This document shows, one piece after another, positions 1-55,626 of a DNA stretch of 64,000 nucleotides. A program made the position numbers and the translations under genes. Numbering within the stretch: position 1 is the stretch's first letter; each line of letters opens with the position of its first letter. A model generated the notes under the pieces. The model was given only the letters and a program-made list of their open reading frames with translations. It ran no database searches and had not been told where the DNA came from. Origin of the DNA: an uncultured Gammaproteobacteria bacterium (GTDB lineage: Bacteria; Pseudomonadota; Gammaproteobacteria; SZUA-229); assembly GCA_963807625.1 (NCBI GenBank), contig CAWECN010000013.1, forward strand, positions 2,258 through 66,257, read 5' to 3'.

Positions 1-3000
1 GACTGGCAGGTCGGCCACCAGCAGATATCGAACTTCTTCGCCGACCGAAATATCCTGTGGTGAACTCGCCGGTGTGTTAGCCGTATCGACCGTCAGTTTG
101 GGCAGCGCGATGACCGGTATCATCTGCACGTTAGCAACCTGGTCTATCGTAGTATAGATACGTGCACGACCAGCATCATTCGGGAAGGCTGCCGTGTTAT
201 CTAGCTGTGGTGCGTTCTGATTACCAAAATTACCATCGAGACTGTCATACGACATGCTCACCGTATTTGTCAGTGTCTGTAACGGTGCGATGGTGATATC
301 TGGATCAACACGATAGTAAAAAGTTACTCTGTTCGCCGGACCCGGGTCGACCTGCAGTAACAGGGGATTGAAACTTTCGTCGACAGTAATAACTGCCGGT
401 GTACCATTGCCAATGATGTTGTCAGGTATGCTGGCAAAGAGCGCGGCTTCATCCGCTTCATCGATCAGTGTATCGCCATCGTTATCCAGACCATCGCTGG
501 AAAAATCAACGACTCCCATCAGATCGGATATATCCAGCGTATCGGTTGAAATAACATTGAAGGCCGGCGAACGAGCCGGCGTCGATGTCTGGTTCTCCAG
601 GGTGATCCGGTAGATGTAGGAGTCATTGGTATCGCCGTTACTGATGGTGTCAGCAAAGGTCGAACAGCCTGTTCCGAATCCGTTCAGGTCTTCATTACAT
701 ACTGTCTTAGTAACAATCAGGTTCGGTTCAACATCGGTCAGATCAACCCTGCGTCCCGTTTCTGCTGGATAACCGGGTGGAACAATATATCCGGCAGGAC
801 TGTTTACAGTGTCACTTACATCGATGTTGATCGGTGGTTGCGCCATACCGGCGATCGGCGCTGACTGAAACACAGCGGTAAATGATGTTTTGGCAATATT
901 GGTACTCGGGTTACCATGCAGATTAGGCGCATAGCCACCAGGCACCGGGTACGCCAGATCGACGGGGTCGTTTAACAGGCGTGTCTTAAAATCTACACGG
1001 AAGAACTCATCGGCAACGCCAATGCCACTAGCAGCATTAAAATTCCATGTTATATCCGTTTCAGAGAGAGGCGTTGTTCCAGCGCCGCCAGTTGCGCCGT
1101 TAAGTATAATGCCGCCGGTACTGGTAAAGTTATAAGGACTAGCGCCAAATGGAATAAATCCCTGGCCGTCAGGCAGGTCATCTACCACCGTAACATTCTG
1201 TACCTCGATCAGGGCAAAGCCCGGGGTTACAAAACCAAACCAGCCACCCGACTCAACACGGTAGTTACAATCTTCACCGATCTGTGAATTCAGGTTACCC
1301 GTCAATGGCGGTGTATTTGGCGGAGCAACTGCTGGCGTTAAGACATCTGCCGGTGCTGCAGGCTCCGGTAAATTATCTTCTGCACAGTACCATGCACTTT
1401 TTACCAGGTTAAAACCAAGCACCCTGGAACGGATCGCATCGAATGAATAATTGTTCGCCAGCTGCGCGACGTTTGGTGTTGTGTTCGATATCACCGGTGG
1501 TGCCGGGAAGGTCAATGCCGTACCATCAAACTGTGTGACTTCACCGAATACGTCTACACGGAATGTCAGGTCATCATCCACTGCGCCAGCTGCTTTTACA
1601 ACTGAAAAGGTGATGGTCTCTGTTGTGTTTGGTGCAATGACACCGCGATCACAGGCATATACCGCTGCCGATGCCGGAATGGCAGCAGGATCATCCCAGT
1701 GCGGATGTGGCGGCGGATTAGCAACCGGGCCAGAACAACCGGCAGGTAATGGTAGCTGAGCTGTCATCGCTTGACCAAGTGTCACATACGCCGTGTAATC
1801 ATCAGCATCATGACCACCGTTATTGGTCAGCAGCACGTTCAGGTTCAACGGGACACCAGGATCATTGGTCAGGATGAACAACGCATCTGAAATAGCAACA
1901 TCCAGGTCTTCCGGATCTGAACTGTAATTAAAAGGCTGATTACGGGTCTGTCCTTGCGGGCCGGTAGAATCAACAGCATCGAAATTAACCACCACGGTAT
2001 TCGTTAACGCCAATGCATTATCAGGATCTGTTAAAGGTGTTGTCTCTGGTGCCACATCGAGGTCGGCGACGAGGTCAAATCGTGATACTTCGATCATCAC
2101 GATACCAAAAGTGAATGAGATGATATCGCCATTACGCAACATGTCTCGTTGCTGCGGAAGATTTGCGCCAGTTGAAGTACTGGTCAATGTGAATGTCGGA
2201 TTTAAATCATCCAGTGGATCAGGGGTAGTCAATTCTGGATCATCACGGGTAAAAGTATCGATGAAACCCGGATAACCGCCATAGGCAGGTATCGTGGTAT
2301 TTGTCGGTTGACCAAATGGCTGACCGTTTTCCGGACCATAACTGTTATCCATCACATAACCGGCTGGCAGATTCGTCAAAACCGTTAACCCCTGTATCGA
2401 ACCGCCAGTCTGGTTTTCCAGCGTTATGGTCATCAGACCTTTACTGCCGAGCGGCTGCCCCGGGTTACTACCGGTTACTGTCTGCGTGATGACCAGTCCC
2501 GCTGGCACCACATCAGTACTAAGAGTGCCTGTTTCCAGTATCGTTACCCCTGGAGTAACACCGCCGGTCGATGCAGGCACTGTAATCGGACCACCAGCGG
2601 GTGAATTAACAGCACAACCCCAGGAGATATCAGCCGTGTTTACATTATTGGTATTTAAGTTAAGGATCCTGCCAACGTAATAGATAGAGACATTACTGCT
2701 GGCGGCAACATCATCAGGGTCCACGATATTTCCGAATGGATCTGCGACGTTATAGGAAGAGTTAAACGCTATACAGTTATTCCCGGGATTACCACCATTC
2801 GCAATAGCTGCGGCTTCGGCCTCGCCTTCCGTGGGACAGATATAGTTGATAGTAAAGTTACCATTGATCGAGTCATTCATCAGCAACGCTTCCATGTTTG
2901 CCAGACCTGCGTTAGCAACGTTTACCTGCCAGATGACATCATCATTGAAGCTGCCGTATACCGGGTCAGTGTAGGCTGAACCGATGGTTTGCCCGGCATC

Positions 3001-4437
3001 ATAGTTCCGTCCATCCTTTAATATGGTCGGTACCGGCTGACGGATAGGCAGTTCGAAATCGCCGGTAGCAACAGATTGCCTGGCTGCCAGACAGGACATA
3101 TCAAAATCGGCGCTGGCGTTAATATTCCTCACCGCCGCAATCAGGTTTTCAGCAACCGTGCTGCGAACACCAAAAGTGATAACGACATTTGCACCCGCCG
3201 CCAGGTTGGCCAGTTGCGGAACCTGTGCTGAGGTCCAGGTCAGCTGTGAACCGACTATACCCGGGTTACCGGGTGCTCCGGCTGGAACCGTGTTGATGGT
3301 AGTCGAATCATTAATATACTCCAGCCCGGATAACTGCAGATCTTCGACGATAGTAATATTGGTCATCGGTGCAGTTGTCGGGTTCTGTATGGTAAGGCTG
3401 ACTACACCATCACCACACAATTCACAGTAGCTGGTAGCAGCATGTGAAATAACGTTAGATAACGGGCCACTGGTAAACTGGAAGTCATACTGTACATTTA
3501 CCGGGCCAGCAGAATCTGTAGCAACACCTGTACGCTCACTCAGGCTGGCAGTGTTATCTAACACCGGGCAGGCGCTGGCTGGTGTTACCGTAGCATCGAC
3601 TGTCAGGTTTACGATCTCGCCAGCTGCGAGGTATTCAAAAGTATAATCATTCGCCCCAGGTCCGTTAGCACCCGGTGGCGGGTTCGGTACAATAAACGTT
3701 AAACCGTTGAGGTCTGCACTGAGGACATCATTCAACTGAACATCAAACAGACCACCACTGCCTGTCGAAGATACCGTGATGTTATAACTGATGACATCGC
3801 CCGTTATCACAGAAACAGTAGGCGTAGATTTGGTAATGCTTAGGCCGCCAGCATTTACATCAATATTCTGCGTAACTGGTGTGCTTGCAGCCGAACCGTT
3901 GTTACCATTGACTGTATTGTAGGTAACGTTATAACCCAGTGACTGTGTACCGGCGGCTGCACTGGTATTCGTCTCCAGACGGAATACATAGTTGTAAGTA
4001 CAACCCGGGTTAATGACGGTGCTGTTATTAGAGAATATATTGATGGTGACCGGCGTGCCAGCACCGCCACCCTGGCTAGCATTGGCATTCATATTGGGAC
4101 AGCTGCCACCGACATCGGTAACTGTTACTGACGTAGATGCCAGCGCGAAACCGGCAGGTACGGTTACCGGGATGTCGCGAATATCAAACGCCGGGTCTGG
4201 TCCGGTGTTGGTAACCGACAGAGTAAACCCGTCACCGGTATTAACTTCAGTCGCACCGTTCCATGTACCGCCGATATCCATGTAGGTACGTGCACCATCG
4301 GCAGGTGAAAAACTGGTTGATAAACCGATGTTTGGTAGGGCGAAAGCATTTTGCATCGGCCATAGCAAAACGCCGCCCACAAACAAACACTTTGCGAGCA
4401 GATTTCGATGACTAACTAGTTTTGCGATATCAAACAA
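1..4437 (-). CDS. Giant secreted repeat protein, partial (N-terminal >1470 aa in window; C-terminus lies beyond position 1). DUF11-type 'conserved repeat domain' adhesin-like surface protein.
   Basis: Manual translation of the minus strand gives one open frame from about 4437 to position 1 with no stop. It is absent from the ORF track because there is no in-window stop. The N-terminus looks like a signal peptide (FDIAKLVSHRNLLAKCLFVGGVLLWPMQNAFA/LP) if a non-ATG start (TTG at 4437) is used; the first in-frame ATG (about 4356) lies after the hydrophobic core. The body is Thr/Asn/Val/Gly/Pro/Asp-rich. It has repeated about 100-aa modules of the DUF11 pattern (e.g. LSITKSTPTVSVITGDVISYNITVSSTGSGGLFDVQLNDVL; VTKTVCNEDLNGFGTGCSTFADTISNGDTNDSYIYRITLENQTSTPARSPAFNVISTDTL). 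A Ca-binding-like DGLDNDGDTLIDEADE motif is encoded near 430-510. The + strand small ORFs 368-4285 in the track are antisense artefacts. Confidence 0.7.
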   Translation of the reverse strand, partial: MFDIAKLVSHRNLLAKCLFVGGVLLWPMQNAFALPNIGLSTSFSPADGARTYMDIGGTWNGATEVNTGDGFTLSVTNTGPDPAFDIRDIPVTVPAGFALASTSVTVTDVGGSCPNMNANASQGGGAGTPVTINIFSNNSTVINPGCTYNYVFRLETNTSAAAGTQSLGYNVTYNTVNGNNGSAASTPVTQNIDVNAGGLSITKSTPTVSVITGDVISYNITVSSTGSGGLFDVQLNDVLSADLNGLTFIVPNPPPGANGPGANDYTFEYLAAGEIVNLTVDATVTPASACPVLDNTASLSERTGVATDSAGPVNVQYDFQFTSGPLSNVISHAATSYCELCGDGVVSLTIQNPTTAPMTNITIVEDLQLSGLEYINDSTTINTVPAGAPGNPGIVGSQLTWTSAQVPQLANLAAGANVVITFGVRSTVAENLIAAVRNINASADFDMSCLAARQSVATGDFELPIRQPVPTILKDGRNYDAGQTIGSAYTDPVYGSFNDDVIWQVNVANAGLANMEALLMNDSINGNFTINYICPTEGEAEAAAIANGGNPGNNCIAFNSSYNVADPFGNIVDPDDVAASSNVSIYYVGRILNLNTNNVNTADISWGCAVNSPAGGPITVPASTGGVTPGVTILETGTLSTDVVPAGLVITQTVTGSNPGQPLGSKGLMTITLENQTGGSIQGLTVLTNLPAGYVMDNSYGPENGQPFGQPTNTTIPAYGGYPGFIDTFTRDDPELTTPDPLDDLNPTFTLTSTSTGANLPQQRDMLRNGDIISFTFGIVMIEVSRFDLVADLDVAPETTPLTDPDNALALTNTVVVNFDAVDSTGPQGQTRNQPFNYSSDPEDLDVAISDALFILTNDPGVPLNLNVLLTNNGGHDADDYTAYVTLGQAMTAQLPLPAGCSGPVANPPPHPHWDDPAAIPASAAVYACDRGVIAPNTTETITFSVVKAAGAVDDDLTFRVDVFGEVTQFDGTALTFPAPPVISNTTPNVAQLANNYSFDAIRSRVLGFNLVKSAWYCAEDNLPEPAAPADVLTPAVAPPNTPPLTGNLNSQIGEDCNYRVESGGWFGFVTPGFALIEVQNVTVVDDLPDGQGFIPFGASPYNFTSTGGIILNGATGGAGTTPLSETDITWNFNAASGIGVADEFFRVDFKTRLLNDPVDLAYPVPGGYAPNLHGNPSTNIAKTSFTAVFQSAPIAGMAQPPINIDVSDTVNSPAGYIVPPGYPAETGRRVDLTDVEPNLIVTKTVCNEDLNGFGTGCSTFADTISNGDTNDSYIYRITLENQTSTPARSPAFNVISTDTLDISDLMGVVDFSSDGLDNDGDTLIDEADEAALFASIPDNIIGNGTPAVITVDESFNPLLLQVDPGPANRVTFYYRVDPDITIAPLQTLTNTVSMSYDSLDGNFGNQNAPQLDNTAAFPNDAGRARIYTTIDQVANVQMIPVIALPKLTVDTANTPASSPQDISVGEEVRYLLVADLPV

Positions 4438-4704
4438 CGGCAAATACCAAAGTTATTACAACTAACTTTTAATTATTATTTATTTATATTTGGTAATTTG
4501 TATTTGATCGCATTTTGATAGTTTTATATGCCAAAAAAAAAGGATACCGTAGCCCGGCAGAACCCTGCATATGAAACATTTCTTTGAGTATAGTTACTAA
4601 GTTAAATTTCGCATTGAATATGTCGAAAATTGGACACTAAAAATTAATACTATTACGACACAAGAAAATACTTAGAGGATATAGCAAGTCAACTTCTTAC
4701 CAGC

Positions 4705-33206: not shown

Positions 33207-33806
33207 TTACCTTCTCAGGATACTGCATCCACGTTCGTTATCAATAAATTCATAACTGAACTCGGGATGTATCTTTAACCAGATCTTTACCAGTTCCAGC
33301 TCATCATCACGCGCAGCATCATCAAGAAAAACAATGCAGTGCTCGGCCAGCCTGTCACTCAACATGGGTAATGCCGGGTAACGAGAATGTTTCTGTAAAA
33401 ACCCTGGTGGACCATCGATCACCAGCATATCAATCGTTTTTTCAGGAAGCCTGGTTATGTCGTACCATTGAAAACCCTTATCTTCCAGTACGATCTCCCG
33501 TAGTGGTGCATGGATGACATCGCAATATCCAGATAAAGAAAAATCACTTAACTGGCCCCTGGTCTTGTTGAGAAACTCTTCGCCATTCTCCAGGCTATAA
33601 ACATGACCCGACCGGTTTATCCGGCAACACTGAGATATCACCAGGCTACTGGTACCGCTACTGCATTCGACGATAACCTTCGGTTTATTCTCCAGGCAAT
33701 AATCACTGATCAGTTTTAGAAAATCGGGTGCGGCCGACCAGGTCTCTGTGACTGGCAATGTACGCTTAAAACCAAGAGATTTTTCCAGCAACTGATATGA
33801 CATCAT
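33207..33806 (-). CDS. Putative class I SAM-dependent methyltransferase (199 aa)
   Basis: Glycine-rich SAM-binding-like motif VIVECSSGTSSLV, and an acidic motif LVIDGPPG / FLDDAARDDE, as in small O-methyltransferases. Tentative. Confidence 0.4.
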   Translation of the reverse strand: MMSYQLLEKSLGFKRTLPVTETWSAAPDFLKLISDYCLENKPKVIVECSSGTSSLVISQCCRINRSGHVYSLENGEEFLNKTRGQLSDFSLSGYCDVIHAPLREIVLEDKGFQWYDITRLPEKTIDMLVIDGPPGFLQKHSRYPALPMLSDRLAEHCIVFLDDAARDDELELVKIWLKIHPEFSYEFIDNERGCSILRR

Positions 33807-33831
33807 CGACGAAGTGTTAACACGGATAAGA

Positions 33832-34044
33832 CTACAGGTAACCGAAGACGATAGAGCCTGCCATGAACAGACTCATACCGATAAGGCCGATACTCCACAC
33901 CACCATCCATAACTGTTTCCCTTTTTTACCGAGGTAGATTAGAACGCTTCCGATGATAACTGACAAAAATACGGTGAATAACAACATATCGTTATGCGAA
34001 TTTTTTGTTAGCATTTCCGGCGGGATGGCATCATTCGGATTCAT
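33832..34044 (-). CDS. Small two-TM membrane protein (70 aa)
   Basis: Two hydrophobic helices, no known motif. Confidence 0.3.
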   Translation of the reverse strand: MNPNDAIPPEMLTKNSHNDMLLFTVFLSVIIGSVLIYLGKKGKQLWMVVWSIGLIGMSLFMAGSIVFGYL

Positions 34045-34090
34045 AGATCAGGGATACCGTCTTAATATTTCTTAATCATAAAATAAAAAA

Positions 34091-34120
34091 GCAGCCATAT
34101 AGCTGCCTCTTTATTAAGCT
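34091..34120 (-). terminator. Candidate rho-independent terminator after the zinc-ribbon gene
   Basis: Short hairpin gcagc-catata-gctgc preceded on the + strand by aaataaaaaa, which is a T-run on the minus strand. Confidence 0.4.
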
Positions 34121-34132
34121 GTGATCACCAGA

Positions 34133-34324
34133 TCACGCCTGATAAGTCATGTCCTGTCCACAGCACATCGGTGATTTCACCATACCGTGATCATCAGGAC
34201 ATTTTGATACATACACGATAGTGCCATCATCAGTCGTGATCGAGTCATGCACCAGCTCTTTACCACATGTAGCACATGTCATCGAGCCGATTCCCATACC
34301 GCATACTTCGCATTTATAAGCCAT
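34133..34324 (-). CDS. Small zinc-ribbon/rubredoxin-like protein (63 aa)
   Basis: Two CxxC pairs (CEVCGM...CATCGK) plus a C-terminal CPDDHG...CCG. Confidence 0.5.
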   Translation of the reverse strand: MAYKCEVCGMGIGSMTCATCGKELVHDSITTDDGTIVYVSKCPDDHGMVKSPMCCGQDMTYQA

Positions 34325-34464
34325 TTATTACCACCTTCTATAGAGTCGCATAGTTTTTAATTAACGGAACTCTATTGTATTCAAAGTTACTGAATTGTAA
34401 ATAGCACTTATCATGTGTGTATTAATAATTGTATGATTTCATACAGGCAATTACTGGTTTACGA

Positions 34465-35127
34465 TCATGCAGCTAACGGTTGTGCCAGTGAATCCAGTAT
34501 CTGCTGACGTCTATGTAAAACCGTCTCCACGACCTTCTGGTAATCAGCGCCGACCGCACTGAACATCGCGGGCACATCGATACCCAGTCCATGCAAAGTA
34601 TCATCAAGGAAGTCCAGCCGCGTCTCTATCGATTGCAGATAGGCATGACTTTCAGCTTCAGGTAATTTTTCCAGCTCAGCATGCAAGCTATTCAGGCCAA
34701 AAGCCACATGGTCGATTTCGTCCTCGAGCGGTGTTTTTAGCGAATCACGCGTTCCCGGATCTGCCATCGGCACGATCTGTTCGACCGCCTCACTGCCTAG
34801 CGCCTCAACGCAGACATACATGTCGGTCAGAAAATCCAGCCAGTTCAATGAACGAAAATGCGCTAAAAACATCTCCTGCTGCAGCTCATCGAATACAGGC
34901 GTGGTATCTGTACCAAACCGCTCGATCCACTCCTGCTGAATCTTTACATGCCGGCTCTCATCGCCCACCTGTTTCGCCATAAATAACCGGCTCTCATCAT
35001 CCGGTGCATCAGCGATACGTTCCGCCACCGCACGCATGATCAGGTAATCCACCTGGGTATACATCACCAGCAAGCGTCCCATGGCCACTTTGTACCCCGC
35101 ATCACTTACCGTTTGATTTTTGTTCAT
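34465..35127 (-). CDS. Ferritin-like diiron-carboxylate protein (COQ7/MiaE/rubrerythrin superfamily)
   Basis: Two ExxH motifs on predicted helices (DESRHVKI; EDEIDHVAF), with additional Glu ligands about 30 residues upstream of each. The 220-aa all-helical protein is consistent with a four-helix-bundle diiron site. Confidence 0.55.
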   Translation of the reverse strand: MNKNQTVSDAGYKVAMGRLLVMYTQVDYLIMRAVAERIADAPDDESRLFMAKQVGDESRHVKIQQEWIERFGTDTTPVFDELQQEMFLAHFRSLNWLDFLTDMYVCVEALGSEAVEQIVPMADPGTRDSLKTPLEDEIDHVAFGLNSLHAELEKLPEAESHAYLQSIETRLDFLDDTLHGLGIDVPAMFSAVGADYQKVVETVLHRRQQILDSLAQPLAA

Positions 35128-49588: not shown

Positions 49589-50548
49589 GTGAACAAAACA
49601 GTCAACAGATCACTACAGTTAAGCGCCTACCTGGCGCCCAAATACTGGCCAGTATGGTTTGCCATCGGATTATTGCGGTTAGCGACCTTTCTACCGGTGT
49701 CGACGCTGCAAGCGATGGGTTCTGCACTGGGCATCTTCATCTATCGTATCGTGCCATCGAGAAGGCGTGCCGCCCGTATCAATCTAAAACAGGCATACCC
49801 TGATTTCTCTGATGAAGAAATCGATGTGCTCAATAAAAAATCATTCAGAAGTCTTGGCATCTCGATCTTCGAAACTGGAATCGCCTGGTTCACCAGGAGT
49901 GAAGCCTTACAGAATATATGCCAGATCGAAGGCAAGGAACATCTCGACGCGGCGATGGCAAAGGGCAAAGGTGTACTCTTATTGACCGGTCACTTCACCA
50001 CACTGGAGATGGGCGGACACCTGATCGGTACCTACGTCGATAAATACAACGCCGTGTTCAAACGGGCACACAACCCCCTGTTCAACGCACTGATGGTGCA
50101 CTACCGCTCAAAGATGGGTGACGACCTTATAGAAACCCGTAACGTTCGCGCCATCATCAAAGGCCTGAAAAGCGGGCACGCGACCTGGTTTGGTCCCGAT
50201 CAGGATTTTGCCGACCAGGACATCGTATTCACCCCCTTCCTCGGTGGTACCGCCTCTACCTTAACTGCCACCGCCAAGCTGGCGAAGATGACTGGCGCTG
50301 CCGTGGTCCCTTTCTATCCGGTACGGCTGGAAAAAGGCAAGGGCTACAAACTCATCGTGAGCCCTGCACTGGAGAACTTTCCTTCCGATGATATCGAGGC
50401 CGATAGCGCCAGGGTGAATGAGACCATCGAAGCCATGGTGTACAACCAGCCGGAACAGTACCTGTGGTCACACAAACGCTTCAAGACACAAGCTGATCGT
50501 AAAACGAATATTTACGCTTATATAGAATGTTTTTCTATCGCTTGTTAA
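49589..50548 (+). CDS. Lipid A biosynthesis lauroyl/myristoyl acyltransferase (LpxL/LpxM family)
   Basis: N-terminal TM anchor, HX4D-type motif in LLLTGHFTTLEMG, PDQD motif, and length 319 aa. Confidence 0.85.
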   Translation: MNKTVNRSLQLSAYLAPKYWPVWFAIGLLRLATFLPVSTLQAMGSALGIFIYRIVPSRRRAARINLKQAYPDFSDEEIDVLNKKSFRSLGISIFETGIAWFTRSEALQNICQIEGKEHLDAAMAKGKGVLLLTGHFTTLEMGGHLIGTYVDKYNAVFKRAHNPLFNALMVHYRSKMGDDLIETRNVRAIIKGLKSGHATWFGPDQDFADQDIVFTPFLGGTASTLTATAKLAKMTGAAVVPFYPVRLEKGKGYKLIVSPALENFPSDDIEADSARVNETIEAMVYNQPEQYLWSHKRFKTQADRKTNIYAYIECFSIAC

Positions 50549-51768
50549 TCGATTGTTCTTAAGCCCAGCTCATCCTGGGCCATATCATCTGGAAATCGGT
50601 CAAGTAATAAACACAGCCGTTACTTCTGGCAACGGCTCGGATTTAGTTATTCAAAACTGCCTAAAGAAGTGCCTATGGTTTCATTGCGCATCTGTCGGCG
50701 AAGTGAATACCTTGCTACCGCTTTTAAAAAATCTACATTCAAAAAATAATCAATTAAAATTCATTATCACAACAAACACCATTACTGGCAGTAAAATTGT
50801 CAAACAGACAGAAACTAAATTACCTGTTTCACAGCTACCTTCCATTTGACTGGCGCTTTAGCGTTAACCGTTTTCTCACCATAACAAACCCTGCTGCACT
50901 CTATGTTTTAGAAACTGAAATATGGCCGAATCTGTTTAACCTGTGCTTTAACAAAGGCGTCGCCATACACATCATCAATGCGCGCTTGTCCAGCAAAACC
51001 ACCTCTGCAAAACCCTGGTTAAAAGCCCTGCTTAAAACTGCCCTGTCGAAAGTTGACACTATTTCTGCCCGCTCTGAACAAGAAGCTTTTGCATATGAGT
51101 TACTCGGTGCCGATAAAAACAAAATATCAACTGTCGGCAACTTAAAACTCACCACCGCTCTGAGCAAGCATCAATTTACGGAGGATAGTAATTTTTCAAT
51201 AGCCCGGGGTTATGTCCTTGTTGCCTCCACCCATGATGATGAAGAATGTCAGATTTATACTATCTGGAAAAAATTAAACCGGGAAGAGCTTCTTATTATT
51301 GTGCCAAGACACCCTGAACGAGCAGCATCTATCGCCAAAAAACTCAACTGCGATAACCTGTCCATAAGAAGTAAAAAACAGCCCATAACAGATAAAACTA
51401 AAGTATTTTTACTCGACACAGTAGGTGAGTTAAACAACTATTTTAAAAATGCAAAACTTGTCATTATGGGTGGTTCGTTTACACCAATAGGCGGACACAA
51501 TATTTTAGAACCTGCCAGTTATAATAATGCGGTCATCACCGGGCCTTACATGGAAAACTTTAAAGAAGAACTGGAATTGATGATTGACAAAAATGCGATT
51601 ATTCAAGTTAGTTCTTTTGATACCTTAGGTCGAGAATTAACAAAGTTGCTGGATAATAAAAATCACAGAACAACATTACAAAAACATACGAAAGAATTAA
51701 CACATAACGCAGAAGTAATACTCGATAGCTATACCACGCTGATACTTAATCATTTAAGCCAACGTTAA
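50527..51768 (+). pseudogene. waaA: Kdo transferase (waaA/kdtA) interrupted by at least two, probably three, +1 frameshifts in its first 300 nt
   Basis: WaaA-like segments occur in three successive frames. Frame 2: ...RYFWQRLGFSYSKLPKEVPMV, which I align to E. coli RKRWGERYGFYRHPLKPGGIML. Frame 0: WFHCASVGEVNTLLPLLKNL...TTNTITGSKIVKQTETKL. Frame 1 (50797-51768): NYLFHSYLPFD...VLETEIWPNLF... through the C-terminus. The switches occur at the ttt run near 50655-50665 and the aaa run near 50805-50815. A possible short first frame (ATG 50527, MFFYRLLID) overlaps the lpxL-like stop. Confidence 0.6.
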
Positions 51769-51978
51769 TACTTGTTATTCTAGACTAAGCTGACGGTTAA
51801 CCAGTCGAGCTCATATTTGACACGCCGACTCAGATAAAACTCCATGCAAAACACCACAATCTGACGTCCGTGATTGTGGCTGGCAGGGAAAAAATGCGGC
51901 CCAAAAACGGACAATTAGAATCTATTAAATCCCAACCCCTTCGTTACTTTCGATTGCGGACTTGTACACATATATGTG

Positions 51979-52716
51979 TTATATACCCAGACGCCGTAAT
52001 AAACGATTTAATTCTTTTTTAAGGCGTTTAGTGAGGCTTATTTTAGGAAATTTGTAATCTGGGAAGAGCTGTATCCCTGTATGTAAATGAACAGGTTCCT
52101 CCATAGTTCGCTTTTCAATAACCAGAACGCTATCATAATAATGTAATGAGTGAACCGATTTGGTAAACTCATTCACACTTAAGCGGCTTGTTTTTGAATG
52201 CCATGCATTTATGTAGTCAATAAATCGTTTACTATATTCAATATATGAATCACTCTTTTTATAGCCCCCGCCAAATCCATACCAGTATGAAGTGTGTAAA
52301 TCTTCACAAAGATAGACACCATTTTCCTCGACTTTGTAGAACAGCTCCTCAAAAGTGTTAATTTGTTGCTTCATAGTGTGACCGCCATCATCAATTAAAA
52401 TATCAATGCGTGGTATTTTTCCGGCTAGCGATTTTAAAAATGTTCGATCTTCCTGGTCACCTATAAAAATTTGAACTTGATCATCTGCAAACTGACTGCA
52501 ATCTGGATTAATATCGACGCCGTATATTTTACAATCTGGACCAAAATAGTCCTTCCACATTAGTAGAGAACCACCTTGTGATACACCAAACTCAACAATG
52601 TGAACATCAGTACCCCTGTAGTGCGAAAAATGTCGATCATAAATTTCAAAATAATGTTGCCATTTGTCAATCAGTCGCCCTGTATTGTTTGTGAAAAATT
52701 TTTCTAAATCATTCAT
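51979..52716 (-). CDS. Class I SAM-dependent O-methyltransferase-like protein (CmcI/TylF-like), probably LPS or glycan modification
   Basis: Motif VEFGVSQGGSLLMW, an acidic DxGxH region (ILIDDGGH), and its location within the LPS core cluster. Confidence 0.55.
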   Translation of the reverse strand: MNDLEKFFTNNTGRLIDKWQHYFEIYDRHFSHYRGTDVHIVEFGVSQGGSLLMWKDYFGPDCKIYGVDINPDCSQFADDQVQIFIGDQEDRTFLKSLAGKIPRIDILIDDGGHTMKQQINTFEELFYKVEENGVYLCEDLHTSYWYGFGGGYKKSDSYIEYSKRFIDYINAWHSKTSRLSVNEFTKSVHSLHYYDSVLVIEKRTMEEPVHLHTGIQLFPDYKFPKISLTKRLKKELNRLLRRLGI

Positions 52717-52955
52717 AACTGGATACTCAGTTCTAATTGCTTTATTGAATCATTATACAAATACACTGGATTAAGAGTATTGTCGAGTGCCCAAAGTGGG
52801 GCGACGCCCCCAATTTTGCCATAATTAATAAGCATCCGTTATGGTTAATCCATATCTATTAATATAGGTAGAAATAAATATTTGAAATGGCCGATTAGGT
52901 TTGAACTACTAGCGTTTATTGCTTTTGCTGAAAACTGCCTACTGCCTACTTAAAA

Positions 52956-53717
52956 CTATCTTTTCACATACCCATCTAAAAAAGCAGACCAATCGTCTTC
53001 ATCGAAGTTAAAACCATCTGTGTTTTTTTTAAACTTTAACAATGATCGCTTCAAACGCGAAATATTATCCATCTTCCAGGAATCTGGACCTATCCGGATA
53101 TTACTATTATCAAAATCTATCAGGTAAATTTTCATGCTTTCAGTAAGCAGAATATTTCTGGCATTTAAGTCAGCATGATACACATTATTTTGATGAAATA
53201 ATTTGATGCATGCGCCGATTTTTTTCCATTGTTCAACATCAATGCTGCTTTCACTTAAAACATCAGCAAGCGTTTTTGTATTTTTAATTTCCTCAGTTAT
53301 TAAATCTGCCCTATACGACACTAATGCTTTTTCAACGTGCGCAGCCACCGCTTGCGGTACGGGCAGACCAAACTCGTTCATTTTTTTTAATAAATGAAAC
53401 TCTCTAAATGAACGTGACTTTATAATGCTGAAACCAAGGTAACGGTCTTTTAAAATTGATGCCACTGCACCGCCTCGATAATAGTGTTTCAGTACGAATG
53501 ATTTTTCACCTTGCGAGAAATAGACGACCCGGGCTCTTCCTATTCCACCCTGCTGCCCGACCGGTGTGTGAGATTCCGATTTATTTTGCTGATAACACTG
53601 ATTAGTGTGATAATCGCGATTAAATAACTGCAATGTCGGTTCAGCTATAATGCTGGCATCATATAGAATATATGAATTACCTGTTTTACTGATTTTTAAA
53701 TTTTTATCCAATGACAT
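52956..53717 (-). CDS. kdkA: 3-deoxy-D-manno-octulosonic acid (Kdo) kinase
   Basis: Kinase catalytic loop YHADLNARNILL and DFD motif (LIDFDNS). Length 253 aa. It lies next to waaA and heptosyltransferase genes. Confidence 0.8.
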   Translation of the reverse strand: MSLDKNLKISKTGNSYILYDASIIAEPTLQLFNRDYHTNQCYQQNKSESHTPVGQQGGIGRARVVYFSQGEKSFVLKHYYRGGAVASILKDRYLGFSIIKSRSFREFHLLKKMNEFGLPVPQAVAAHVEKALVSYRADLITEEIKNTKTLADVLSESSIDVEQWKKIGACIKLFHQNNVYHADLNARNILLTESMKIYLIDFDNSNIRIGPDSWKMDNISRLKRSLLKFKKNTDGFNFDEDDWSAFLDGYVKR

Positions 53718-53744
53718 TTAAAAGTTTAATCCAACGATGATTTA

Positions 53745-54836
53745 ATGGCCTCTGCTCAGACATATTCACGCGACAATCCGCCACAAACATTATGTCTGTT
53801 ACGACTGTCTGCCCTGGGTGATATTACGCATGTTTTACCTACTTTGCGAACATTGCAGAAGCACTGGCCACAGACAAAGATCTCCTGGATCATCGGTAAA
53901 ACAGAATACCAGCTGGTCAAAGACCTCGAGGACATCCATTTTATTATCTTCGACAAATCAGCTGGTCGCGCGTCTTACCGGGAACTGAAAAGACAGGTTA
54001 AGCATCACCTCGATGGCCAGAAGTTTGATGTGCTGCTGCACATGCAGTTATCCATCCGCGCCTCGGTCGCCAGCCTGTTCATACCTGCAAAGATCAAGCT
54101 GGGTTTTGACCGGGCCCGCGCCAAGGACATGCAGTCATTATTCTGCAACCGACAGATCAGGCCTGCATCTCTACGCCAGCATGTACTCGACAGCTTCCTC
54201 GAGTTCCCTGGTTATTTTGGCCTCGAACCCGTTTTCGAATGGCGGCTGCCGGTGTCTCAGGCTGCTATCGAGAGTATAAAAAAACGACTACCGACGGATA
54301 AAAAATTATTTGTCATCAATCCCTGTGCCGTCGCCAAATCAAAGAACTGGCGCAACTGGAGTGCCGAAGGTTATGCCGCTATCGCTGACCTGGTCAGTGA
54401 CAGCTATGGTATGCAGGTTGTTCTGACTGGCGGCAACAGCCCGCTTGAAACAGAGATGGCTGATAATATTCTTTCGTTATGCCAATCGGCTAAACCGCTT
54501 AACTTTATCGGCAGGACCAGTATCGATGAACTGGTCGCAGTACTACAACTGGCCGACATAGTGATCGCCCCCGATACCGGGCCGGTCCATATCGCCAGCG
54601 CACTGGGCACCGATACGATCGGCCTGTATGCGGCGACCAACCCTGATCGTGCCGGGCCTTATAACCACATGGGCTATGTCGTCAGCAAATACCCGCAAGC
54701 CCTGTTAGAGTACAATAATAAGACCGTTGAACAGGCTTCCTGGGGAGAACGCATAAAAACCGCGGAATGCATGAAACTGATCACTATTGACGATGTAATA
54801 ATACAGATCGAAAATATTCACAGGCCATCAACTTGA
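53745..54836 (+). CDS. Glycosyltransferase family 9 (LPS heptosyltransferase)
   Basis: N-terminal LRLSALGDITHVLP motif and C-terminal GT9 core (GPDTGPVHIASALG). Confidence 0.8.
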   Translation: MASAQTYSRDNPPQTLCLLRLSALGDITHVLPTLRTLQKHWPQTKISWIIGKTEYQLVKDLEDIHFIIFDKSAGRASYRELKRQVKHHLDGQKFDVLLHMQLSIRASVASLFIPAKIKLGFDRARAKDMQSLFCNRQIRPASLRQHVLDSFLEFPGYFGLEPVFEWRLPVSQAAIESIKKRLPTDKKLFVINPCAVAKSKNWRNWSAEGYAAIADLVSDSYGMQVVLTGGNSPLETEMADNILSLCQSAKPLNFIGRTSIDELVAVLQLADIVIAPDTGPVHIASALGTDTIGLYAATNPDRAGPYNHMGYVVSKYPQALLEYNNKTVEQASWGERIKTAECMKLITIDDVIIQIENIHRPST

Positions 54837-54885: not shown

Positions 54886-55626
54886 ATGACACATAAATAC
54901 AGAATAATCGGCTGCATTCCAGCCAGATACGCATCGACACGGCTGCCAGGAAAACCGCTATCAGATATCAACGGCAAACCGATGATCCTGCATGTACTCG
55001 AGCGGGCATTGCAGGCGGCAACGCTGAGCGATGTCATCGTATTGACAGATGACCAGCGAATATATGACGTGGTAAATAAAGCAGGATACAGCGTCGCTAT
55101 GACGTCTGAAAACTGTGCATCAGGCACCGACCGCATCGCCGAATACATGCAGGAATCTAATGCTGATATTTTCGTCAATATACAGGGTGACGAAGTAACG
55201 CTAGACCCGCTGCACATCAACCACCTGGTACACAGCTTCGTTGATCAGACAAAACCGCAGATGGGTACACTGTCACACTGGTGTGAAGACAAGTCTGTTT
55301 TAGCAGCACCGTCAAATGTCAAAGTCGTAACATCTATTAGTGGCAATGCCCTGTATTTTTCCAGGAACATGATACCGGTCACACAGCAGGGTGAGATCGC
55401 CGACCGCGGGCAGATCCATATCGGTGTATATATCTACACCCGTGAGACATTGACCCGGTTGATGCAACTGGAACAGACGCCGCTAGAGCAGACCGAAAAG
55501 CTGGAACAGCTACGTGCACTGGAAAATGATATCGCCATCAATGTAACGACACTGGAAGATTACCAGGGGCTGGCAGTAGACACGCCGGAAGATCTGGAGA
55601 GAGCGCGGGACCTGTTTAAAAACTGA
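54886..55626 (+). CDS. kdsB: 3-deoxy-manno-octulosonate cytidylyltransferase (CMP-Kdo synthetase)
   Basis: N-terminal IPARYASTRLPGKPL and family-wide motifs (SGTDRIAE, NIQGDE). Confidence 0.9.
   Translation: MTHKYRIIGCIPARYASTRLPGKPLSDINGKPMILHVLERALQAATLSDVIVLTDDQRIYDVVNKAGYSVAMTSENCASGTDRIAEYMQESNADIFVNIQGDEVTLDPLHINHLVHSFVDQTKPQMGTLSHWCEDKSVLAAPSNVKVVTSISGNALYFSRNMIPVTQQGEIADRGQIHIGVYIYTRETLTRLMQLEQTPLEQTEKLEQLRALENDIAINVTTLEDYQGLAVDTPEDLERARDLFKN

Follow-up and report, generated by a model that had tools for sequence, protein, structure and literature searches.

Does an uncultured member of the gammaproteobacterial lineage SZUA-229 really lack an intact gene for WaaA, the 3-deoxy-D-manno-oct-2-ulosonic acid (Kdo) transferase of the lipopolysaccharide (LPS) inner-core pathway? 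The question arises from a stretch of 64,000 nucleotides on contig CAWECN010000013.1 (assembly GCA_963807625.1), referred to as the window in the following, in which the reading frame of waaA (50527–51768, forward strand) is broken as deposited. The original prediction, made from this DNA, described two to three +1 frameshifts at homopolymers and offered three explanations, namely localized sequencing errors, a genuine pseudogene, or slippage-prone, phase-variable expression. We have compared the locus with those of related uncultured bacteria (designated L001 and so on) and come to the view that the frameshifts are probably consensus artefacts, which would have resulted from the blending of two haplotypes at the boundary of an LPS cassette that varies among strains; we put the probability of this reading at about 0.72. 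Localized errors are therefore the one option of the three that we retain, although not in their homopolymer form, and we favor neither the pseudogene nor phase variation.

Six additional bases at the 5′ end of waaA

The deposited gene runs from an ATG at 50527 to a stop codon at 51766–51768 and measures 1,242 nt, that is, a gene of 1,236 nt plus six extra bases. Its ATG frame meets a TAA at 50560–50562 and thus stops after 11 codons, and the longest open reading frame (ORF) downstream, which encodes 323 amino acids, does not include the N-terminal segment bearing the HxASxGE motif. Peptide segments homologous to WaaA are indeed spread over different frames, as had been noticed initially: an ORF at 50553–50849 corresponds to positions 16–65 of the Pfam family Glycos_transf_N and a second one at 50797–51768 to positions 70–177, both above the gathering threshold, and tblastn with intact homologues jumps between frames at about 50600, 50667 and 50808.

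The number of these shifts is larger than first described. When the DNA of 13 relatives (L001, L005–L013 and L019–L021) is aligned to the window, six bases of the window gene are missing in every one of them (13/13), and no further indel is found across the gene; the earlier count of two to three took in just the last two or three of the six. Every shift is +1 and points in the same direction, which agrees with the original prediction, and waaA contains no deletions relative to either the DNA of the 13 relatives or 120 full-length or nearly full-length homologues. The six insertions are confined to 50551–50808, a segment of 258 nt within the first 290 bases of the 1.24-kb gene, and the other ~950 nt carry no lesion.

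In their most parsimonious placement (forward strand, inserted base in brackets), the first extra base is a G at 50551 (ttaatc[G]attgtt), which is the transition partner of the adjacent A and lies where L022 has the allele CGAT. The second is a C at 50558 (attgtt[C]ttaagc), where L022 reads TTCTTA, with the Leu codon CTT, L006 reads TTTTA, with the Leu codon TTA, and the window holds both. At the third position, a C at 50569 (gcccag[C]tcatcc), the window sequence CCAGCTC is the union of CCAGTC in L006 and CCGCTC in L022. The fourth, a T at 50600 (aatcgg[T]caagta), can be placed ambiguously within GTCA, at a codon that is GCA or GTA in the relatives, and the fifth, a G at 50666 (cctaaa[G]aagtgc), is found where L022 has AAAGAA and L006 has AAAAAG. 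Finally, an A at 50808 (aaacag[A]cagaaa), or equivalently a G at 50807, falls into a Gln codon that is CAA or CAG in the relatives, with CAG as the native type and CAA in L006, and that reads CAGA in the window. The reading frame thereby passes through 1>2>0>1 within 19 nt (50551–50569) and again through 1>2>0>1 at 50600, 50666 and 50808, and with six shifts in total it is back in the frame of the ATG.

The proposed association with homopolymers does not hold. None of the six insertions lies in or beside a run of at least 4 bases, the nearest such run being 10–53 nt away, and Tandem Repeats Finder (TRF) detects no simple-sequence tract at any shift site. In alignments read by eye, the eight runs of at least 4 bases in 50500–50850, among them A6 at 50726 and 50741 and T5 at 50530, appear to be neither longer nor shorter than their counterparts in L006, where the gene is intact. 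Likewise, no motif is common to the six insertion contexts. A methylation motif was considered, as several insertions follow CAG, but was rejected since these are mostly CAA/CAG Gln codons.

An uninterrupted reading frame is thus absent from the deposited gene and is restored only on removal of the six bases, which opens a frame of 411 codons, somewhat shorter than the 420 or so initially expected. The 411-residue product matches the NCBIfam model NF004388 over positions 5–421 of 425 (E 3e-94); its score of 316 bits lies below the equivalog cut-off of 438, so that we assign the repaired WaaA to a divergent subgroup. It aligns with the structure of WaaA from Aquifex aeolicus (PDB 2xci), and its HxASxGE motif, encoded in the frame-0 segment at 50667–50807, is intact, with WFHCASVGEV opposite WVHTASIGEF of 2xci. 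Homologues of the hand-repaired WaaA number in the thousands, and the best 120, with 380–428 residues, are WaaA proteins of full or almost full length, at most 87% identical to a first rough repair. On the DNA level, the repaired gene is 97–100% identical to intact waaA of related uncultured Gammaproteobacteria. With its full-length similarity, its motif and its usual neighbors lpxL, kdkA, a heptosyltransferase gene and kdsB, it resembles the WaaA/KdtA family of Kdo transferases (GT30; PF04413; NF004388; 2xci), from which it differs in that its frame is interrupted six times as deposited.

The substitutions in the affected part of the gene point in the same direction. Compared with L006, codons 1–94 contain 10 synonymous and 2 non-synonymous differences, which corresponds to an omega (ratio of non-synonymous to synonymous divergence) of ~0.05, versus 0.36 for the rest of waaA and 0.27 for the whole gene. 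The broken stretch of waaA thus gives no hint of decay or relaxed selection.

The inserted bases and the edge of a low-GC cassette

The inserted bases have a non-random identity: each of the six is the transition partner of a base next to it, compared with 33% of random insertions (P ~0.0012), and none extends a homopolymer, whereas 42% of random insertions are of the homopolymer type. When the bases are re-added singly, five of the six reduce the edit distance to L022; by comparison, 23% of random insertions avoid raising it (P ~0.003). Jointly, the six bases bring the window 4 edits nearer to L022 and move it 4–6 edits farther from seven other references. The effect can also be followed in the 30-mer TTAATCGATTGTTCTTAAGCCCAGCTCATC, which in an alignment read by eye, not separately computed, equals a 27-mer of L006 with an additional G, C and C. 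Read in the same way, TTAATCGATTGTTCTTAAGCCCAGCTCATC also equals a 27-mer of L022 with an additional T, A and A and two mismatches. The Leu codon TTA of one allele and the Leu codon CTT of the other would thereby have yielded CTTA in the window. Judged from these alignments, the 30-mer at the 5′ end of waaA appears to be the union of two alleles.

The insertions are located at the left edge of a compositionally distinct block. Together with a methyltransferase gene and kdkA, waaA forms a low-GC cassette (50550–53700) with a GC content of 35–40%, versus ~50% in the genome; the drop from ~50% to 35–40% spans 50500–53750 and is sharp at 50500. The flanking genes are ~75% identical to those of L006, a metagenome-assembled genome (MAG) from the Microflora Danica project, with saturated synonymous sites (synonymous divergence, dS, above 2). 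In waaA, by contrast, the identity to L006 is 97–100% over 50684–51483, with a dS of 0.16. The closest relatives by their flanks are L022 and L023, which share 85–95% identity with the window in tolC and lpxL, but have a waaA of ~50% GC that is just 63–75% identical to that of the window. Native-like identity returns at ~53700, with L022 being 93–98% identical across 53699–53899. Because of the low GC content, the low dS of waaA to L006 compared with the saturated flanks, and the divergent waaA of L022 and L023, we regard the waaA–methyltransferase–kdkA cassette as foreign to its flanks and as imported from a different, lower-GC lineage.

The pattern suggests that lineages have recently swapped a cassette for the LPS inner core. 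Such a swap would resemble the exchange of LPS core and O-antigen cassettes by homologous recombination, in that a 3.1-kb low-GC block sits between conserved flanks and has diverged far less from a distant lineage at synonymous sites than the flanks have. It would differ from such exchanges in that the block includes waaA, a normally conserved inner-core gene, and in that its left junction is located within a gene.

This left junction can be assigned to the first ~150 nt of waaA. We scored sites at which the window base agrees either with L006 only (D) or with L022/L023 only (N), and found that N and D sites alternate in a mosaic zone at 50500–50680 (forward strand), where sliding identities also cross over: identity to L006 rises from ~75% to 97–100%, and identity to L022/L023 drops from 85–95% to 63–75%. 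Past ~50680, the sequence is almost purely D, interrupted by a single N site near 50880 and by several others from ~50938 onwards. Five of the six insertions lie inside the alternating zone, and the sixth is the one in the Gln codon at 50808.

A separate observation concerns the 3′ end of waaA. Here, over 51484–51790, the nearest relative changes: L006 drops from 98% to 71% identity and L008 climbs to 91–95%, which suggests that waaA contains a second breakpoint of recombination.

These findings can be brought together in one scenario. Reads of two waaA 5′ ends, one native-like and one imported, were probably piled together at the left edge of the cassette. Wherever a substitution or a synonymous codon distinguishes the two versions, the consensus would have retained both bases and thereby acquired a +1 insertion; deeper in the cassette, a single version would dominate and the sequence would be clean. 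The real gene would then be an ordinary, intact waaA of 411 codons, and the organism would make a normal Kdo–lipid A core.

Comparable errors and alternative explanations

Errors of the same class are found in related long-read assemblies. The loci L006, L007 and L008 all come from sample MFD03551 of the Microflora Danica project, which assembled Nanopore reads with metaFlye and applied one round of Medaka polishing (PMC12313526). In L006, the rhodanese gene and tolC together contain five private +1 insertions (L006:7480–9000), and L008 has one +1 insertion in waaA, CA[G][A]CGA (L008:10105), at a position where relatives have CAA or CAG; several of these private insertions are readable as two tandem alleles. 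L022 (ENA ERZ25039514, contig_33771) bears a Flye-style contig name, and many of its genes are split, tolC and the heptosyltransferase gene among them. In its segment L022:5230–6700, the 3′ ends of waaA and kdkA are truncated and the equivalent of window positions 51518–53399 is missing, through either a real deletion or a misassembly. By contrast, no such insertions occur in the contigs with short-read-style names (JGI, that is, Joint Genome Institute; SPAdes NODE_; MEGAHIT k141) of L001/L002, L009/L010, L020 and L023, and waaA is intact in L001, L005, L011, L012, L019–L021 and L023. A metagenome scan returned eight loci, three of which cover the 5′ end of waaA.

It has been described that Flye collapses close strains into one consensus (PMC8302730) and that consensus indels split genes in Nanopore assemblies (PMC9262707). 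The length of the window contig (334,063 bp) and the long-read origin of the MAGs of its relatives suggest that the contig likewise stems from a long-read, strain-oblivious assembly. The waaA lesions would accordingly belong with the frameshift artefacts of long-read MAGs, where contigs of good overall quality have genes split by indels of one base; as in the present case, such indels occur in sister MAGs built from Nanopore reads only and not in relatives assembled from short reads. The textbook artefact of this kind, however, is an error in homopolymer length and usually scattered, whereas the window has insertions only, outside homopolymers and in a tight cluster, each of which looks like two alleles in tandem at the edge of a strain-variable cassette.

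Several points weigh against an origin from two haplotypes. The case is built on assembled sequence and is thus indirect, and the platform and assembler of the window contig are deduced rather than shown. Some insertions can be placed in more than one way, for instance that at 50600, and MAFFT favors one 2-nt insertion plus two substitutions at 50551–50558. The edit-distance test is complicated by indel errors within L022 itself, and the second base of the doublet corresponds to an allele seen in relatives at four of six positions, which does not differ significantly from a background of 34% (P ~0.1). Furthermore, the right edge of the cassette (~53600–53720) shows no comparable errors, and kdkA is intact. 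Lastly, we know of no published account in which a given polisher keeps both alleles in this manner; the mechanism is drawn from the pattern.

If the two-haplotype origin is wrong, the next candidate would be another technical artefact, such as poor polishing, thin coverage, a remnant of a raw read or a dip at the GC step, which would leave the real gene just as intact without any mixing of haplotypes. We consider this rather unlikely, even though it can account for several of the observations. The errors are local, with 6–8 indels in ~300 nt if a possible −1/+1 pair at the lpxL stop is counted, which is a density reminiscent of raw reads; scattered indels also occur in sister long-read MAGs; and the GC content falls sharply at 50500. 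Yet errors in raw long reads also take the form of deletions, substitutions and miscalled homopolymers, and it is hard to see why such a process should have produced insertions only, none of them homopolymeric and all of them transition partners. Neither would it predict that five of the six insertions match the allele of L022, or that the great majority of substitutions in this zone are synonymous and native-like instead of random.

More improbable still is a genuine, very recent pseudogene, in which an imported waaA was inactivated near the recombination junction. If true, this uncultured gammaproteobacterium would live without WaaA-dependent Kdo transfer or use a second Kdo transferase encoded elsewhere. 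The deposited frame, with its stop after 11 codons and a 323-residue ORF devoid of the HxASxGE segment, would fit this view, as would the position of the gene at a recombination junction and the 3′-truncated waaA and kdkA of the close relative L022; the latter truncation, however, lies on a contig full of split genes. A pseudogene would require six independent +1 insertions and not a single deletion within 258 nt, where one would expect mixed lesions throughout the gene, but the remaining 950 nt are free of lesions and 97–100% identical to an intact gene. Moreover, omega in the broken part does not rise towards 1. Real indels concentrate in homopolymers, which the insertions in waaA avoid, and the identity of the inserted bases is non-random in a way that mutation does not predict. 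Finally, the neighboring LPS genes are intact, including kdkA, whose product acts on the product of WaaA.

The least probable explanation by far, and one that the sequence itself contradicts, is regulated expression, through either slippage-driven phase variation or a programmed +1 frameshift of the ribosome with full-length WaaA as the outcome: while the shifts are all +1 and in sum return to the ATG frame, no site has a repeat or homopolymer, the six contexts share no motif, the full-length homologues examined need no shift, broken waaA frames occur among the relatives only in the long-read assemblies L008 and L022, and we know of no precedent for six successive recoding events in one gene. 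In the phase-variable LPS genes of Haemophilus, Neisseria and Campylobacter, the frame is switched by single-base length changes; these are LPS biosynthesis genes as well, but they use long, conserved homopolymers or tetranucleotide repeats, and the window has no such tract.

Neighboring genes and implications

The gene preceding waaA, lpxL (49589–50548, forward strand), encodes a lipid A acyltransferase of 319 residues and is intact, although its C-terminus is 6–9 residues longer than in homologues. These are mostly 310–313 residues long, and nearly all of the 120 listed cover at most 97% of the window protein. The usual stop codon seems to have disappeared because an A is missing from TTAATAT at ~50514, with the result that lpxL overlaps the ATG of waaA, and an extra A is found directly ahead of this ATG. 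The indels at the end of lpxL (50505–50548) probably belong to the same error cluster as the insertions in waaA.

Downstream of waaA, on the reverse strand, follow a gene for an S-adenosylmethionine (SAM)-dependent methyltransferase of 245 residues (Methyltransf_24; 51979–52716) and the Kdo kinase gene kdkA (52956–53717). The methyltransferase protein has no match in NCBIfam. In L001 and L002, waaA and kdkA are not separated by such a gene, and a BLAST alignment of the window with L006 leaves this segment uncovered; the L008 contig, on the other hand, carries a homologue that is at least 90% identical. KdkA belongs to the Pfam Kdo family and scores 239 bits with NF002475, versus a cut-off of 142. 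The subsequent heptosyltransferase gene (GT9; 53745–54836) and kdsB (54886–55626), both on the forward strand, are native-like. A Pfam scan found kdkA and these two genes, as well as lpxL, to be intact, in line with what had been noted before.

No other frameshift was found in the 64 kb: tblastn queries taken from the ORFs of seven related loci and a Pfam scan of essentially all ORFs of at least 90 codons both showed the remaining genes at full length. Since the rest of the window is clean, the problem is local and does not reflect its general quality, as the original prediction had argued. Two further candidates were rejected: a frameshift in the rhodanese gene of the window, flagged by tblastn, proved to be an error of L006, and 660 nt lacking a long ORF at 33806–34465 hold two small genes instead of a broken one. 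The window contains no rRNA or tRNA, and an open frame on its reverse strand (1–4452, at least 1,484 codons) extends beyond its start.

For long-read MAGs in general, waaA may serve as a warning that clustered +1 insertions outside homopolymers can mimic pseudogenes at the edge of a strain-variable cassette. Such false pseudogenes can be recognized by inserted bases that are the transition partner of their neighbor and match a second allele. For the organism itself, nothing unusual follows: all of the LPS inner-core pathway is most likely in place, and neither a loss of LPS nor a dependence on a host should be claimed from the state of waaA. The exchange of the cassette, by contrast, appears to be real and is of some interest in its own right, as a low-GC waaA–kdkA block has apparently been swapped between lineages that are otherwise saturated at synonymous sites.

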